Assembly: GCA_900541855.1 (NCBI GenBank)
Contig: UQLD01000001.1
Span: 38,052 to 102,051 of the forward strand
Origin: an uncultured Collinsella sp.
GTDB lineage: Bacteria > Actinomycetota > Coriobacteriia > Coriobacteriales > Coriobacteriaceae
DNA length: 64,000 bases
Direction: 5' to 3'
Below the pieces are notes generated by a model. The model made no database searches. It saw only the letters and a program-made list of their open reading frames with translations, and was not told the DNA's origin. Both the position numbers and the translations under genes were made by a program. Below, one piece after another: positions 891 through 61,570 of the stretch. Position 1 is the stretch's first letter, and the number at the start of each line of letters is the position of its first letter.

Positions 891-1009
891 GGGTGGCGGA
901 GCATATGTTTGCTCCGTCGCGAGTTCCGCACGCAAAGGAAAGCACTTAATGTGCTTTCCGTCTTGCGCAGGACTGTTCGAGCAGGGAGCAAACATATGCT
1001 CCGCCACCC
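891..1009. repeat. Nested perfect-palindrome element, copy 1 (inverted orientation): 25-bp arms GGGTGGCGGAGCATATGTTTGCTCC around a ~60-bp conserved core
   Basis: Arms 891-915 and 984-1009 are exact reverse complements. The core (GTCGCGAGTTCCGCACGCAAAGGAAAGCACTTAATGTGCTTTCCGTCTTGCGCAGGACTG) is the reverse complement of the core at 31.98, 49.26 and 60.26 kb. Confidence 0.85.
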
Positions 1010-1025: not shown

Positions 1026-2240
1026 CTAGCAGGTGGGGTACTCGCCCTCCCAGACGATGCGACGGTACTGATCCGGATCCGTGTCGCCCTCGGTGGAGAA
1101 GCAGAGCACGGAGCTCGTCTTATCCAGGCCGATGAGCTCCTTGAGCTCGGCGTACTCGGGATCGAGCATGAGGGTCTCGACCAGGCCGGTGGTCACAGCG
1201 CCGGACTCGCCGGAGATGACGCGCGGGTCGCCCTTCTCGGGGGCGCCCAGGGTGCGCATGCCGCGAGCGGTGACCCAGTCGGGGCAGGACACGAAGGCGG
1301 TGGTGTGGTTGCGCAGAATATCCCAGCCCAGGATGTTGGGCTCGCCGCAGCACAGGCCGGCCATGATGGAGGGCATGTCGCCGTCCACGATGCGCGGGTC
1401 GCCGTCGCCGGCGACAGCGCCCTTGTACAGGCAGGCGGCCGGAGCGCACTCGACCACAACGAAGGTGGGCGGGTTATCGGGATACAGGTTGGTGAAGTAG
1501 CCCACCACGGCGCCGGCCAGCGAGCCCACGCCAGCCTGGACAAAGACGTGTGTCGGGCGGTTGATGGCCATCTCGCGCAGCTGCTCGGCAGCCTCGGAAG
1601 CCATGGTGCCGTAGCCCTCCATGATCCAGGACGGGATCTTCTCGTAGCCCTCCCAGGCGGTGTCCTGAACGATGACGCCGCGCTCGCAGGCATCGGCCTC
1701 GGCGGCGGCCATGCGCACGCACTCGTCGTAGTTGACCTCTTCGATGGTCACCGTGGCGCCCTCGGCGGCGATGTTATCGAAGCGGGGCTTGGTGGAACCC
1801 TTGGGCATGTGCACGACGGCCTTCTGGCCCAGCTTGTTGGCAGCCCATGCCACGCCGCGGCCATGGTTGCCGTCGGTGGCGGTAAAGAAGGTAGCCTGGC
1901 CAAAATCCTTGGCAAGCTGATCGGAGGTCAGGTAATCGAAGGTGCACTCGGCAACGTCCTTGCCGGTCTCGTCGGCAATGTAGTTGGCCATGGCAAACGA
2001 ACCGCCCAGAACCTTAAAGGCGTTGAGGCCAAAGCGATAGCTCTCGTCCTTAACGCACAGGTTGGACAGGCCCAGGCGCGCGGCCTGGCCATCCAGGCGG
2101 GCAAGCGGAGTGACGGTGTACTGGGGGAACGACTGGTGGAAGGCGCGGGCCTTCTTCACGTGGTCGAGGCTCATGATTCCCAAGTGCTTGTCATCGCTCT
2201 TGGGCATCGTGTTGCCCGCCCACTGGATCTTATCGGCCAT
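1026..2240 (-). CDS. dpaL: diaminopropionate ammonia-lyase (PLP-dependent, YgeX/DpaL-like)
   Basis: 404 aa, PLP fold-type II. Product type, length and the YgeY/SsnA/YgfK neighbourhood fit the known SDMH cluster composition. Confidence 0.8.
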   Translation of the reverse strand: MADKIQWAGNTMPKSDDKHLGIMSLDHVKKARAFHQSFPQYTVTPLARLDGQAARLGLSNLCVKDESYRFGLNAFKVLGGSFAMANYIADETGKDVAECTFDYLTSDQLAKDFGQATFFTATDGNHGRGVAWAANKLGQKAVVHMPKGSTKPRFDNIAAEGATVTIEEVNYDECVRMAAAEADACERGVIVQDTAWEGYEKIPSWIMEGYGTMASEAAEQLREMAINRPTHVFVQAGVGSLAGAVVGYFTNLYPDNPPTFVVVECAPAACLYKGAVAGDGDPRIVDGDMPSIMAGLCCGEPNILGWDILRNHTTAFVSCPDWVTARGMRTLGAPEKGDPRVISGESGAVTTGLVETLMLDPEYAELKELIGLDKTSSVLCFSTEGDTDPDQYRRIVWEGEYPTC

Positions 2241-31050: not shown

Positions 31051-31671
31051 TTAGGCCATACGGATGGCGACGAGACCATTCTTGGCACCCGGGACAGCGC
31101 CCTTGACCAAGATGAGGTTCTGCTCGGCATCGATGCGGACAACGGAAAGGTTCTTGACGGTAACGCGCTCGTTACCCATGTGACCGGCCATCTTGACGCC
31201 CTTGAGGACGCGCGCAGGATAGGCGCACTGACCGATAGAACCGGGGTGACGCTGGAAGTGAGAACCATGCGTCATAGGACCGCGGCGCTGACCCCAGCGC
31301 TTGATGCGACCCTGGAAGCCCTTACCCTTGGAGGTACCGATGACGTCGACCTTCTCGACATCAGCGAAATCAGCGACGGTGACGACCTCGCCGACCTTGT
31401 GCTCCTCGCCGTTCTCGACGCGGACCTCACGAAGGAAACGGACAGGCTCGACGCCAGCCTTGGCGAAGTGACCAGCCATGGGCTTGTTCACGTTCTTGGC
31501 CTTGATGTCGCCGAAACCGATCTGGACGGCGTCATAGCCGTCGGTTGCCTGAGTTTTAACCTGCGAGACAGCGCAGGGGCCAGCCTGGATGACCGTGACG
31601 GGAACGACGTTGTCGTCCTCGTCCCAAACCTGGGTCATGCCAATCTTGCGGCCGAGAATCATGCTGATCAA
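31051..31671 (-). CDS. rplC: 50S ribosomal protein L3
   Basis: [29 protein letters not shown]...[22 protein letters not shown]. Start codon uncertain (TTG at 31671 or the ATG 9 nt downstream). Confidence 0.9.
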
Positions 31672-31938
31672 GATATGATCCCAACTCTCGCGTGGTCTTG
31701 GGACAATGCGTACACCACCGAGCGTACGCCCCTAGAGGACCACTACTTACACGACGTGCTCCCCAGCCTTGTATTGCGTCCGGACTACCTGACAACCCTA
31801 TTAAGCAGGCATTTTGTCCAGCCAGAATACTCCCCTGGTTACACACAGTTGTTTAGTATACACGGCTGCGGGCGTATCCATCGAGATTCATATTTCACTC
31901 ACATTGTTTACGCAGGTAAAGTGCGTGGAGTCGCCTGG
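31672..31938 (-). promoter_or_regulatory. Promoter/5' leader of the rplC-rplX operon (rpsJ is NOT adjacent here); possible r-protein autoregulatory leader
   Basis: ~270-bp untranslated region upstream of rplC on the minus strand. The leader role is by analogy to S10-operon leaders, not verified. Confidence 0.3.
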
Positions 31939-32075
31939 GCTTGGCAGAGGGGCGGCGAAATATATTAAGTTTGCTGCTCTACAGTCCTGCGCAAGACGGA
32001 AAGCACATTAAGTGCTTTCCTTTGCGTGCGGAACTCGCGACAAACTTAATATATTTCGCCGCCCCTCTGCCAAGC
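31939..32075. repeat. Nested perfect-palindrome element, copy 2: 35-bp perfect arms (GCTTGGCAGAGGGGCGGCGAAATATATTAAGTTTG) + conserved core
   Basis: Arms 31939-31973 and 32041-32075 are exact reverse complements. The core CAGTCCTGCGCAAGACGGAAAGCACATTAAGTGCTTTCCTTTGCGTGCGGAACTCGCGAC is identical to copy 3. Confidence 0.85.
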
Positions 32076-32119
32076 TCGGGAGACGACACGTTGATGTCTG
32101 CTTAACTCTGCTCGCTCAG

Positions 32120-32746
32120 CTAATTTCTTTGTTGGGGGTCCACTATTTGCTGGAGAGTGAACTTGCATTGCATTGGCTCGCCCTCTGCTTGTAGTTTTTC
32201 CTCGTCAAAATCGAAGATCATGATGGCGCAGTTGGGGAGTTTTGTTGGGAGCTCGAAGCCCTCTGGGGCTGCAGCCTTGATGAATTGGCGGCTGGCGCTG
32301 CCGTGGCTTACTGCTAGGAGGGTTTCGATGCCCTCGGCTCCCATGAGATTGGTGAGGGTGTCTACCATGCGTTCTTGCAGCGCGCGGCTTCCTTCTCCTC
32401 CAAAGGGGACCAGGTCCTCGCCCGGATCCCAGACGTCGGTGGGCAGCGCGTCGTGCGGGCCTTCTTCGAAGGAGCCGTAGCAGCGCTCGATGATGCCTTC
32501 GCAGGGCTCGACTGCTGCGTCCGGGCCGAGGAGCTCGCATGCGACGAGCTGAGCTGTGTCCATGGCTCGGCCTAAGGGTGATGAGGCCACTTTGTCGGGA
32601 ACGACGTTGTGGGCTTTGAGCCATGCGGCTGCCATCCCGGCTTGCTGACGGCCCAAATCGGTGAGCGGTGAATCGCAACGACCTTGGACGAGCTTTTTGA
32701 CGTTGAATTCCGTCTGGCCGTGGCGGAGCAGATACAGCTTCTTCAT
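32120..32746 (-). CDS. histidine phosphatase family protein (phosphoglycerate mutase-like)
   Basis: LLRHGQTEFN catalytic RHG motif. Confidence 0.8.
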   Translation of the reverse strand: MKKLYLLRHGQTEFNVKKLVQGRCDSPLTDLGRQQAGMAAAWLKAHNVVPDKVASSPLGRAMDTAQLVACELLGPDAAVEPCEGIIERCYGSFEEGPHDALPTDVWDPGEDLVPFGGEGSRALQERMVDTLTNLMGAEGIETLLAVSHGSASRQFIKAAAPEGFELPTKLPNCAIMIFDFDEEKLQAEGEPMQCKFTLQQIVDPQQRN

Positions 32747-49004: not shown

Positions 49005-49211
49005 AGCGTACTCCTTCTCGAATGATTCCAGCTTTCTGTAAAGTGCAACGGCTTGAATCGAGGGGTCAGCATCCCCCTACGAAACACGCAGTTCGATAGG
49101 ATACGTGGCGTTAGCTGTGCCGTCAACAGACCACGCCGCCGGGCGTATCCCAAAATGAGCATATTTCCGCAAAGCCTACACAAAAGGAATCCCCTTCTGT
49201 GCGCGGGGGCA

Positions 49212-49348
49212 GATTCCCGGAACGGGCCGCCCGCTGTTTAAGTTTGCTGCTCTACAGTCCTGCGCAAGACGGAAAGCACATTAAGTGCTTTCCTTTGCGT
49301 GCGGAACTCGCGACAAACTTAAGCAGCGGGCGGCCCGTTCCGGGAATC
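49212..49348. repeat. Nested perfect-palindrome element, copy 3: 25-bp perfect arms (GATTCCCGGAACGGGCCGCCCGCTG) + TTAAGTTTGCTGCTCTA + conserved core + CAAACTTAA
   Basis: Arms 49212-49236 / 49324-49348 are exact reverse complements. The inner part is identical to copy 2 over ~85 bp. Confidence 0.85.
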
Positions 49349-49377: not shown

Positions 49378-49415
49378 TCAAAAAAGACCCGCTCCCCTGT
49401 TGGGAAACGGGTCTT
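49378..49415 (-). terminator. Intrinsic terminator after rpoC (GACCCG-loop-CGGGTC + TTTTTT on the minus strand)
   Basis: 7-bp stem; the T-run corresponds to plus-strand AAAAAA 49380-49385. Confidence 0.7.
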
Positions 49416-49442
49416 TGGAAGGACGGTTAACGTACTTGGAAA

Positions 49443-59407: not shown

Positions 59408-59929
59408 CTAAGCTGCCTTCTGCTCGGAGACCTGCTGGATCGAACGAGCGAGACCAGAGGAAACGCCGTTGACGCAGACAGCGATGTCGCGAGCGAAACC
59501 AGAGATGAGACCGGCAATCTGGCCGAGAAGCTGATCCTTGGTGGGCAGCTCGGCGATAGCCTTAACATCATCAGCGGAAACGGCCTTGCCGTCGGAGATA
59601 CCGCCCTTGATCTCAAGGACGCCCTTGGACTTAGCGGAGAAGTCCTTAAGGGTCTTAGCGGCCTCAACCGGCTCGGTCTCGTAGAACACATAAGCGACGG
59701 GGCCGGCGAGGATCTCGTCGAGCTCGGGCTGCTCCTGGTTCTTGAGAGCGATCTTGACCAGGTTGTTCTTGTAGACCTTCATCTCGGCGCCGCACTCGCG
59801 AAGCTGATGACGCAGCTCCTGAGCCTGCTTAACCGTCAGACCGTTGTAGTTGACGACGAACAGACCGGCGTTCTCGGCGATACGGGACTCGATCTCTGCA
59901 ACCTTGTCGATTTTGTACTGCTGGGGCAT
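59408..59929 (-). CDS. rplJ: 50S ribosomal protein L10
   Basis: MPQQYKIDKVAEIESRIAENAGLFVVNYNGLTVKQAQELR... Confidence 0.9.
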   Translation of the reverse strand: MPQQYKIDKVAEIESRIAENAGLFVVNYNGLTVKQAQELRHQLRECGAEMKVYKNNLVKIALKNQEQPELDEILAGPVAYVFYETEPVEAAKTLKDFSAKSKGVLEIKGGISDGKAVSADDVKAIAELPTKDQLLGQIAGLISGFARDIAVCVNGVSSGLARSIQQVSEQKAA

Positions 59930-60211
59930 GAATTACACCTCCTCGAATTCTTTCCGGGCACGGTCCGCCACAAGGACGTGACGGGGGCATGTCCAAAAAG
60001 AAAGCCCCCGCGCTGCATGAGCGACGGGGGCGAGAAGACATATCTACTCGACCACCTCGGCTGGCGGGATATCCCATTAAGCTCGCGGGCGATGCCCGTT
60101 TGCACCGGCTGTCTCTGGCAGCGGATTCGTGCGTGAACCGAAAGTATTATGGCGGGGACCCCGGCGGCGGTCAACGGGCGCGAGGATTCGTACACAAACC
60201 CTGCATACGCT
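59930..60211 (-). promoter_or_regulatory. rplJ 5' leader (expected position of an L10-leader-type autoregulatory RNA); rplK/rplA are not upstream
   Basis: ~500-nt untranslated region upstream of rplJ. The L10 leader is a known cis-regulatory element in many bacteria, but its structure is not verified here. Confidence 0.3.
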
Positions 60212-60335
60212 CCGGCCGGGAGGGGCAGGGCGAGTTTTCCGCTCGGTCAAGTCCTGGGCTCGCACGAAGGCCACATTAAGTGGCCTTCGGCTCGTGCGGA
60301 ATCTACGGAAAACTCGCCCTGCCCCTCCCGGCCGG
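60212..60335. repeat. Nested perfect-palindrome element, copy 4 (diverged family member): 30-bp perfect arms (CCGGCCGGGAGGGGCAGGGCGAGTTTTCCG) around a variant core with compensatory changes
   Basis: Arms 60212-60241 / 60306-60335 are exact reverse complements. The core keeps AGTCCTG, CACATTAAGTG and GTGCGGAA. The inner stem GGAAAGCAC/GTGCTTTCC is replaced by GAAGGCCAC/GTGGCCTTC. Confidence 0.8.
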
Positions 60336-60433
60336 AGCTACGTTGCCTTTGTTGCGAATCCTCGTGTCCGTTGAGCGACGCACCCCACGCATAACCCTTA
60401 TGTCGGTGGGCTGATGTGTTGCATCCCTAAGGA

Positions 60434-61570
60434 CTACAAGGTCGAAACGAAGGTTGACAGGCGGTGGAGGCCTTCGTCTAGATCTTTGTCGGAGACGCAG
60501 TAGCTTAGGCGGATGTGGCCTTCGGTGCCGAAGCAGTCTCCCGGGACTAGGGCTACGTTTGCCTCTTTGATGGCTTTGATGCAGAAGGCTTCGCTGGTTA
60601 GGCCGAATTGTTTGATGCTGGGGAAGGCGTAGAAGGCGCCGGCTGGTTCCACTACGTCTAGGCTCATGTTATTAAGGGATGCGAGTACGCGTTCGCGGCG
60701 GGCTTGGTAGACTTTGAGCATGGGGGTTGGGTCGACGGTCAGGGCTCGGGCTGCGGCGTCCATCTCGAAGGAAACGGCGCTCGATACTAGGTATTGGTGC
60801 GCCTTTGCGATCTCGGCGATGACGGGGGCTGCCGCTGCGAGCCAGCCCAAGCGCCAGCCGGTCATGGCCCAGGGCTTGGAGAAGCTCTCGATAACTACCG
60901 TCTGATCGCGAAGCTCCGGGTGGCGCTGGGCAAAGCGCTCATAGCCATCCACATAGACCAGACGGTTGTACACGTCGTCGCAGACCACGTAGATGCCCGC
61001 CCGCTTCGCCACGCGCGCCACGGCGTCGAGCGATGCCGCGTTGAGGATGCAGCCCGTGGGATTGTTGGGCGAGCAGATGACGATGGCCTTGGTCGCCGGT
61101 GTCACGCAAGCACGAAGTGCGTCTTCATCAATCTGGAATTGCGCAGGCTCCGTATCCAAAAAGACCGCTTTGGCGTGGTTGGCCACGACGATGCTCTCGT
61201 ACAGGCCAAAGGCTGGCGTGGGGATAATGACCTCGTCGCCGGGGTTGAGCATAGCCATGAATGTTGCCGACAGGGCCTCGGTCGCGCCGTCGGTCAGGAT
61301 TACCTCGTCGGCCGAAAACGTAAGACCCGCGTCCCCCATGTAGGCAGACAGCGCCTCGCGCAGGGCAGGACGGCCGTTGTTGGGCGGATAGTGCGTGTCG
61401 CCGCGGCCCAGCGCGGCGGTCACCTCGGCGCAAATCACATCGGGTGTAGGAAAATCGGGCTCGCCGAGCGCGAGCGCAATGCATCCTGGGTGCTGGGCAG
61501 CGAGCGCGTTAATCCGACGGATGCCGGAGGGCTTGAGCGTGGCAAGCGAGGTATTCATGGGCAGGCGCAT
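60434..61570 (-). CDS. pyridoxal-phosphate-dependent aminotransferase (class I/II, aspartate aminotransferase-like)
   Basis: 378 aa. SFSKPWAMTGWRLGW (PLP-binding Lys), NNPTG motif. Confidence 0.85.
   Translation of the reverse strand: MRLPMNTSLATLKPSGIRRINALAAQHPGCIALALGEPDFPTPDVICAEVTAALGRGDTHYPPNNGRPALREALSAYMGDAGLTFSADEVILTDGATEALSATFMAMLNPGDEVIIPTPAFGLYESIVVANHAKAVFLDTEPAQFQIDEDALRACVTPATKAIVICSPNNPTGCILNAASLDAVARVAKRAGIYVVCDDVYNRLVYVDGYERFAQRHPELRDQTVVIESFSKPWAMTGWRLGWLAAAAPVIAEIAKAHQYLVSSAVSFEMDAAARALTVDPTPMLKVYQARRERVLASLNNMSLDVVEPAGAFYAFPSIKQFGLTSEAFCIKAIKEANVALVPGDCFGTEGHIRLSYCVSDKDLDEGLHRLSTFVSTL

Follow-up and report, generated by a model that had tools for sequence, protein, structure and literature searches.

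The window analyzed here is a 64,000-nucleotide (nt) stretch of contig UQLD01000001.1 (positions 38,052 to 102,051 of the forward strand, assembly GCA_900541855.1) from an uncultured Collinsella sp., and the feature under study is a long palindromic element at 49212-49348, in the intergenic region between rpoC and rpsL. A model-generated annotation made from the sequence alone, hereafter the original prediction, had described it as one of four nested palindromes in which a common core is flanked by copy-specific arms, and all four loci are confirmed by our analysis. In each copy two mutually complementary arms enclose a core that carries a short apical hairpin. The copies and their neighboring features, in window coordinates, are as follows.

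891-1009, minus strand: copy 1, with perfect 25-bp arms at 891-915 and 985-1009, core at 916-984 and apical hairpin at 937-959.
1026-2240, minus strand: PALP (diaminopropionate ammonia-lyase-like) gene, co-oriented with copy 1, which lies 16 nt past its stop codon.
31051-31671, minus strand: rplC, to which copy 2 is antisense.
31939-32075, plus strand: copy 2, with perfect 35-bp arms at 31939-31973 and 32041-32075, core at 31974-32040 and apical hairpin at 31998-32020.
32120-32746, minus strand: histidine-phosphatase gene, to which copy 2 is likewise antisense.
49098-49126, minus strand: sigma-70-like promoter match of rpsL (TTGACG-17-TATCCT, a consensus match only), between copy 3 and the gene.
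49212-49348, plus strand: copy 3, the feature under study, with 35-bp arms at 49212-49246 and 49314-49348, core at 49247-49313 and apical hairpin at 49271-49293; it occupies the space from the rpoC terminator to the promoter-like site of rpsL, in antisense orientation to the two genes.
49381-49419, minus strand: rpoC terminator, a canonical T-tract hairpin that is distinct from copy 3 and precedes it along the direction of transcription.
60146-60174, minus strand: sigma-70-like promoter match of rplJ (TTGACC-17-CATAAT, a consensus match only), between copy 4 and the gene.
60209-60338, plus strand: copy 4, with perfect 33-bp arms at 60209-60241 and 60306-60338, core at 60242-60305 and apical hairpin at 60266-60288.

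The motif AGTCCTG..CACATTAAGTG..GTGCGGAA occurs four times in the window as against zero times in 100 shuffles. On either strand, each copy is predicted to form one rod-like hairpin with an energy of -80 to -108 kcal/mol (z = -12 to -15), the sense strand folding slightly better in three of the four by virtue of G·U pairs in the core. The apical module of this rod consists of a 9-bp hairpin closed by CAC-ATTAA-GTG and the conserved strands AGTCCTG and GTGCGGAA, and is rendered asymmetric by its unequal loops, CTGCTCTAC and CTCGCGA; copy 4 represents a divergent subfamily with the loops CGCTCGGTCA and TCTACG. The basal stem below the module comprises 25-50 bp of G+C-rich, near-perfectly paired sequence that differs from locus to locus. 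The expectation that the arms are exact Watson-Crick complements in every copy was correct for copies 1, 2 and 4, but copy 3 has a single mismatch, T49237 opposite G49323; likewise, the last element is indeed present but its arms extend to 60209-60338 rather than 60212-60335. In copy 2 a decayed outer stem can be traced out to 31924/32090, giving a total of 50 nt with 90% complementarity.

A pattern scan covering one genome per species recovered the element on at least 120 contigs, nearly all of which belong to Collinsella or Coriobacteriaceae, with a few labeled 'uncultured bacterium'; the original prediction of a repeat family, for which a search in related genomes had been proposed, is thus borne out. 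The copies form 24 ortholog groups which, with one complex region divided up, correspond to about 35 distinct intergenic loci. A hidden Markov model (HMM) built from the copies yielded 168 strong matches in the collected loci, whose sequences are cited by L numbers below. These matches include the variants GGTCCTG, CATATTAAGTG and CACATTGAGTG as well as truncated halves that the strict pattern had overlooked, indicating that the core motifs are highly conserved but not absolute. The unit measures about 120-185 bp, with a stem of median 31 bp and maximum 49 bp (115 complete copies) and a spacer of 64-85 nt between the arms, and many contigs terminate within it, as expected of a dispersed repeat. 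We rejected a phage-borne element, as only two viral contigs carry it. Two contigs of a bin labeled Methanobrevibacter smithii (L034, L104) also have the Collinsella element, most likely through contamination of the bin.

A search of the whole window against Rfam 15 at gathering thresholds recovered a single S-adenosylmethionine (SAM) riboswitch and no family for the element. With copies 1, 3 and 4 at E<=10 we recovered either nothing or sub-threshold hits, on both strands, to eukaryotic miRNA-precursor models (for example MIR1437, 45 bits against a gathering threshold of 168), which are matches to a generic long hairpin. The Collinsella-1 RNA (RF01700) gave no match to the element in these searches, and a known RNA family was accordingly rejected. 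Searches of the literature and of one supplement for the motif or for a Collinsella repeat recovered no description. Hence, the element is most likely the representative of an undescribed, Collinsella-specific family of non-coding palindromic repeats comparable to repetitive extragenic palindromic (REP) sequences and miniature inverted-repeat transposable elements (MITEs). The riboswitch, which is the sole Rfam match in the window (RF00162, 4572-4662, plus strand), scores 44.5 bits against a gathering threshold of 44.4.

The most informative property of the family is the manner in which its arms co-vary. Within the ortholog groups we counted 80 mirrored arm changes, of which 45 are transversions, as against 30 unmirrored states in 785 columns. 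Mismatches affect 66 of 3485 arm pairs (1.9%), and G·T-type mismatches (18) are no more frequent than C·A-type ones (21), indicating that neither strand displays the wobble tolerance typical of RNA stems. In a 27-sequence alignment of the apical hairpin five pairs vary, with every change two-sided and none one-sided, and RNAalifold reports two-sided changes in 18 of 25 pairs. Divergence within the same ortholog pairs is 16.8% at 4-fold degenerate sites and 6.1% in the arms, the latter figure rising to 11.9% over all pairs with gapped alignments. Hypermutable arms were therefore rejected, and the lower divergence than at 4-fold sites implies some constraint on the arms. On standard population-genetic reasoning, divergence of this order is too fast for independent compensatory double substitutions under strong selection, and under weak selection a mismatch frequency far above 1.9% would be expected; thus, a copying mechanism appears to be required. 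Taken together, these comparisons strongly support the view that arm pairing is kept at the DNA level by copying. The absence of strand-biased wobble, the transversions among the mirrored changes and the two-sided apical changes also favor the DNA-level process that the original prediction had preferred over RNA-level selection. As such mirroring yields covariation even where there is no functional RNA, the family provides a warning for RNA motif discovery.

Further marks of copying are seen in the orientation of the core and the extent of the arms. At the locus upstream of rplJ, compared in ten strains whose L10 proteins are identical, the core is reversed in L135 and L139 relative to L133, L134, L138, L140 and L142, while the arms (GCCGCGCCGCCGAAGGCCAGGCGCAAGGTTTT) and the asymmetric sequence just outside them keep their orientation. 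L178, L194, L212, L248, L252 and L262 are further unflipped sequences of this locus, and the metagenome contig L291 has a third flipped core; the metagenome scan, which used a 16-mer from the arm of this locus, was too unspecific, with nine real cases among the 120 matches listed. Two of the three flipped copies come from apparently long-read or hybrid assemblies. No flips were found among about 115 copies in the 24 ortholog groups, in the seven of ten fetched rpsL sequences that have the element, or in nine intact sequences of the rplC locus. In L111 (4822-4910), a single low-coverage contig of a metagenome-assembled genome, the left half of the core is the exact reverse complement of the right half, AGTTCCGCACGCAAAGGAAAGCAC being the reverse complement of GTGCTTTCCTTTGCGTGCGGAACT. 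In L005 and L094 an arm takes in the T-tract of the upstream gene's terminator and an inverted copy of it lies on the far side, and in L067 the left arm spans a stop codon; this incorporation of native flank together with its inverted copy implies that arms extend outward.

Two additional observations concern these structures. In L030, L077, L059, L076 and L006 (6705-6793) the apical 9-bp hairpin is composed of sides belonging to different variants (e.g. GGAGGCCAC..GTGCTTTCC) even as the arms still match, which suggests that conversion tracts are short or that switch points fall at the ATTAA loop. The L133-L142 allele with arms GCCGCGCCGCCGAAGG.. has a further perfect 18-bp inverted repeat (AACGGAAAACCGGGCTGC/GCAGCCCGGTTTTCCGTT) that begins some 25 nt beyond the arms, with non-complementary sequence in between, and constitutes a third level of nesting at the rplJ locus. 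Chimeric arms were considered as proof of inter-element recombination but were retained only as a lead, because joins at the repeated 65-85 nt core can be assembly artefacts.

The correction of quasipalindromes was reportedly described by Ripley in 1982. Template switching is now documented to homogenize and extend the arms of inverted repeats and to invert their spacers (PMC5941160, PMC8794818, PMC8604942). In the Collinsella family a mutation in one arm would be copied onto the other arm by template switching across the hairpin or by arm-to-arm recombination, and the same copying process would occasionally invert the core and could palindromize parts of it. Template switching, which the original prediction had named, is the best candidate for the mechanism of arm homogenization in the light of the mirrored arms, flipped cores and palindromized core; arm-to-arm homologous recombination would be expected to leave similar marks.

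The original prediction had further regarded the arms as unrelated stretches of ordinary genomic DNA, potentially an inverted copy of the target flank made at insertion, and neither proposal is supported by the comparison between loci. The first 8 nt of the arm outward from the core are conserved family-wide as T[AT]AG[GT]TT[GT], with this proximal conservation extending over 8-13 nt, and arm positions 17-28 are about 90% G+C, with an excess of G on the 5' arm, as against 61% G+C in the window. Alignment of 31 independent arms yields a degenerate consensus, ..CCCGGGAGGGGCGGGGC-ATAAGGTTTG, and the motif CCCG[AG]/CCGGG is present in 16 of the 31, compared with 7.2 +/- 2.1 (maximum 14) in 1000 composition-preserving shuffles. 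One clean presence/absence comparison is available, in which L117 is occupied by a block of about 155 nt immediately after the stop codon TAG and L008, L024, L026, L077 and L112 are empty, with both arms missing; this single pair of states (L117 versus L026 etc.) also displays a possible duplication of TAG or CTG..TAG and 17 + 7 nt of extra non-palindromic sequence, the elements at the remaining loci being too old for a duplication to be discerned. Given the shared degenerate consensus, the non-genomic composition and the absence of both arms from the empty site, we read the arms as part of the element, that is, as apparent diverged descendants of a common arm and not as duplicated target DNA. 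No arm was found to be common to non-orthologous loci, which share only G-rich 11-mers, and there is hence no sign of recent transposition.

Two other loci illustrate how elements may be gained or lost. At the rpsL locus the core is missing from L121, L125 and L130, where about 20 nt of one arm remain; ancestral flank still found in the window is gone from them too, and hence these strains are deletion derivatives, and they were rejected as pristine empty sites. At the PALP locus, relatives with an 86% identical PALP have neither element nor arms, L163 (92% identical) has only the right-arm-like GCCCCGCCACACCC, L158-162 (96% identical) have a small imperfect hairpin, GGGCGGAG..GCTCCGCCACC, made of outer arm sequence, and the element-bearing alleles have perfect arms and 77 extra nt. 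This series fits either insertion into a small hairpin with correction of the left arm or decay after deletion; look-ups with the exact PALP and histidine-phosphatase proteins gave occupied alleles only. In L164-L166 (1949-2052; 88% identical PALP) the spacer between the PALP and peptidase M20 genes has a different nested structure, with a long-range inverted repeat (GGCGCCCCGC/GCGGGCGCC), a direct repeat (CCGGCCTCACCGCGAG) and fragments resembling the loops of the element (GCTCGAAC, GCGAGAGTTTC), and may represent a degraded or rearranged copy.

With respect to genes, none of the copies at the approximately 35 loci lies inside a coding region. A co-oriented gene lies upstream at 18 loci, and at 17 of these its stop codon is followed by the stem within 0-46 nt; anti-oriented genes on the 3' side have their stop codons at a distance of at least 35 nt, in most cases 78-300 nt, suggesting that placement is strand-specific and linked to gene 3' ends. 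The gene contexts comprise 14 convergent, 9 antisense-tandem, 3 sense-tandem and 2 divergent arrangements, and putative terminators of their own were noted for 12 of 41 opposing genes. Three of the window copies had been assigned to the 5' leaders of ribosomal protein operons, which is probably wrong: all three are antisense, and for rpsL and rplJ the predicted promoter is located between the copy and the gene, with copy 4 starting 35 nt upstream of the promoter-like -35 hexamer of rplJ. For rplC the promoter scan found no promoter-like site. Scans of the window found neither promoter-like nor terminator sites within the elements. Of 61 unique copies, 4 have a T-rich tail behind them when read on the sense strand and 2 when read on the antisense strand; given the rarity of T-tracts and the lack of terminator-scan sites at the elements a canonical intrinsic terminator was rejected.

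The neighborhoods of the copies present several peculiarities of their own. In the window rplC is preceded by the histidine-phosphatase gene and not by rpsJ (31051-32746), an unusual order for ribosomal protein genes; likewise unusual is a class I/II aminotransferase gene in place of rplK-rplA ahead of rplJ (59408-61570). An 11-mer, CGGGCGTATCC (GGATACGCCCG on the gene strand), follows AAATATG at both 49140-49150 and 31869-31879, just upstream of the rpsL and rplC promoter regions, and may be a common ribosomal protein promoter or UP-type motif. Many strains (L121-L130 at the rpsL locus) have a gene for an extracytoplasmic function (ECF)-type sigma-70 factor and a 358-aa gene between rpoC and rpsL; this insert of about 2 kb is bracketed by two copies of the element region in L111 and probably also in L089, suggesting a role of the repeats in the rearrangement. 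The collected loci also contain 24 matches (e.g. L005 2645-2687, L123 1080-1128 and L044 4948-5031) to a second dispersed repeat, TTTCCCCAGATAAAACCGACCAAAATAAACCTGTCCCTTTTTG, which is about 45 nt long and has no match in the window; it often adjoins the palindromic element, as at the rpsL locus and between head-to-head pairs, but it also occurs alone or as an inverted pair.

Our favored reading, to which we assign a probability of roughly 0.6, is that the family is a REP/MITE-like hairpin of gene 3' ends and inter-operon regions whose pairing is maintained at the DNA level. The positions of the copies, close to stop codons or between a terminator and a promoter, make a function as a 3'-end or inter-operon hairpin the most likely one: lying at a transcript's end or between operons, this highly stable hairpin would block 3' exonucleases and read-through in the manner of E. 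coli REP elements and the actinobacterial terminators without U-tracts, and its conserved core may be a module for recognition by a protein. Several points weigh against this reading. No identical arms at two loci, no clear target-site duplication and no partner transposase were found; with regard to the latter, the open reading frames between paired copies in L059, L074, L091 and L117, all of at least 105 codons and mostly of more than 300, were not run against protein families. The flips are confined to a single locus and to 3 of about 19 sequences, and chimeric, non-complementary arms (L040, L062, L115, L119, L156, L198, L234) are present, which are possible assembly artefacts at the repeated core. 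That the arms evolve more slowly than 4-fold sites means that selection for pairing is not cleanly separable from mechanical homogenization. The scarcity of T-rich tails also counts here, as does the spacing of the genes flanking copy 1, which are 62-73 nt apart in element-less relatives and probably form an operon, arguing against a strict terminator; it is from position alone that we infer a hairpin-barrier function.

Among the alternatives, the arms could be target-derived if a short mobile core inserts and one flank is copied in inverted form, or if the core enters the loop of a native hairpin. The element-less PALP alleles L158-162 and L163, which carry arm-related sequence, would suit such a scenario, and so would L005, L094 and L067, where arms take in native flank and thus can grow outward. 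We nevertheless regard it as unlikely, since the clean empty sites opposite L117 are without both arms, unrelated loci share an arm consensus and a G+C content of about 90%, and orthologous arms turn over in place between flanks that are conserved on both sides; moreover, the PALP alleles can equally be deletion remnants, given the 77 extra nt in the occupied ones, and the supposedly empty rpsL sites clearly are deletions. A structured non-coding or cis-regulatory RNA with stems under RNA-level selection, such as a leader duplex processed by RNase III or a riboregulator of ribosomal protein genes, appears similarly improbable. Its conserved unpaired nucleotides and fixed core asymmetry would suggest a specific ligand, and the strand-specific placement directly past co-oriented stop codons and the slightly better sense-strand folds of three of the four window copies, owing to G·U pairs in the core, point in the same direction. 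Yet the arms have no excess of G·U over C·A, the apical hairpin has no one-sided change and more than half of the mirrored changes are transversions; the copies near ribosomal protein genes are antisense, with those of rpsL and rplJ upstream of predicted promoters; and the same core, for which Rfam has no matching family, stands beside unrelated genes. The two-sided changes in 18 of 25 pairs that would otherwise speak for an RNA are uninformative because DNA-level mirroring produces covariation on its own.

The element might also be viewed as a programmed DNA switch, a mini-inverton in which a site-specific invertase would recognize the arms or their conserved proximal 9 nt as its repeats and the core would act as a signal whose effect depends on orientation. 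Both core orientations do occur between identical arms upstream of rplJ (L135, L139 and L291 versus about 16 others), the proximal arm sequence is conserved family-wide and copies adjoin promoters. Set against this are the lack of any flip among the remaining ortholog groups and the rpsL and rplC loci, which indicates that orientation is stable, unlike in phase-variable invertons, and the lack of a promoter-like site in the core. In known invertase systems the invertible segments are, to our knowledge, longer than the 64-85 bp spacer. We identified no dedicated invertase, although the loci were not systematically screened for recombinase genes, and on balance we hold a dedicated switch to be very unlikely. 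The differences in arm sequence between strains at the same locus could finally bring to mind acquired guides or spacers, i.e. a hairpin-encoded memory of foreign DNA; the G-rich consensus shared by the arms and their evolution at a slower rate than 4-fold sites leave this a nearly negligible prospect. A phage origin of such guides was rejected, as a comparison of 40 arms with 50,697 phage records gave only a chance-level match (E = 0.5).

Returning to the REP/MITE-like hairpin, it is conceivable, although we consider it doubtful, that the core is the recognition module of a hairpin-specific protein, for instance a domesticated transposase resembling the REP-associated tyrosine transposases (RAYTs) or an RNA 3'-end factor. 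The elements would then be used in one orientation behind stop codons, and self-correcting arms combined with recombinase-free flipping of the core would make them genome-wide orientation-dependent switches. If true, this would represent a REP-like system new to Actinobacteria with a maintenance logic of its own. On the favored reading, the family illustrates a known mutational mechanism in a clear natural example and is not a new kind of genetic system. Its interest lies in part in the host, Collinsella being an abundant and very diverse genus of the human gut, in which each genome has dozens of intergenic sites marked by the repeat, assemblies are broken at it and inversions and deletions may be mediated by it. 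It further offers an unusually clean natural experiment on the upkeep of long perfect stems, as mirrored transversions, the lack of wobble intermediates, spacer inversion and palindromization are united in one family. Should the hairpins define transcript 3' ends or insulate strong ribosomal protein promoters, they would be relevant to operon annotation and expression engineering in Collinsella.

A comparison with known systems places the family close to, but outside, several established classes. In E. coli, REPs are found near stop codons, and their hairpins are established as barriers to 3' exonucleases. The Collinsella element shares with REPs, bacterial interspersed mosaic elements (BIMEs) and REPINs, which are mobilized by RAYTs in proteobacteria, the nature of a short, non-coding, extragenic, multi-copy imperfect palindrome that forms stable hairpins on either strand, and the location after stop codons, between convergent genes and inside operons. 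It differs in that the paired arms are conserved in REPs, whereas in Collinsella conservation resides in the center, and past the proximal 8-13 nt the basal arms are specific to their locus; in that the arms are much longer (25-50 bp) and near-perfect, with no GTAG-type 5' tetranucleotide evident; and in its actinobacterial (Coriobacteriia) host, where no RAYT gene was found linked to the element, no whole-genome protein census having been made. With the Correia elements of Neisseria, whose transcripts are substrates of RNase III, and with MITEs it has in common a unit of about 100-160 bp that forms one long hairpin, lies in intergenic regions near promoters or terminators and breaks assemblies, and with MITEs also presence or absence as a whole unit at orthologous sites (L117, the occupied, partly occupied and empty PALP alleles, and the deletion derivatives at rpsL). 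The terminal inverted repeats of MITEs, in contrast, are nearly the same in every copy, the unit is flanked by direct target duplications and a parent insertion sequence is known, whereas the Collinsella arms share only a degenerate consensus, with no recent transposition visible and no parent element found.

Terminators without U-tracts ('I-shaped') are known from the Streptomyces and Mycobacterium literature, and these and the TRIT-like 3' hairpins of Actinobacteria resemble the element in being long, G+C-rich, devoid of a T-tail, situated directly past stop codons and enriched between convergent genes. We know of none with a conserved asymmetric apical module or with arms of 30-50 perfect bp, both of which set the Collinsella element apart, and the termination role of the latter is putative. 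Invertons similarly consist of a segment between perfect inverted repeats that occurs in both orientations in natural strains, but the Collinsella segment is very short and promoter-less, its flips are rare and its orientation is stable at most loci. Finally, template-switched inverted repeats display the same homogenization of arms, including multi-base changes and transversions, the same outward extension of arms and the same inversion of the spacer, which in Collinsella is the core. The published evolutionary cases mostly have arms of 5-16 bp and spacers of 2-8 nt in yeast, or are short rRNA or miRNA stems (PMC5941160, PMC8794818, PMC8604942), whereas in Collinsella the arms span 25-50 bp, the spacer of 64-85 nt is itself a conserved module and the process is seen at about 35 loci of one family.

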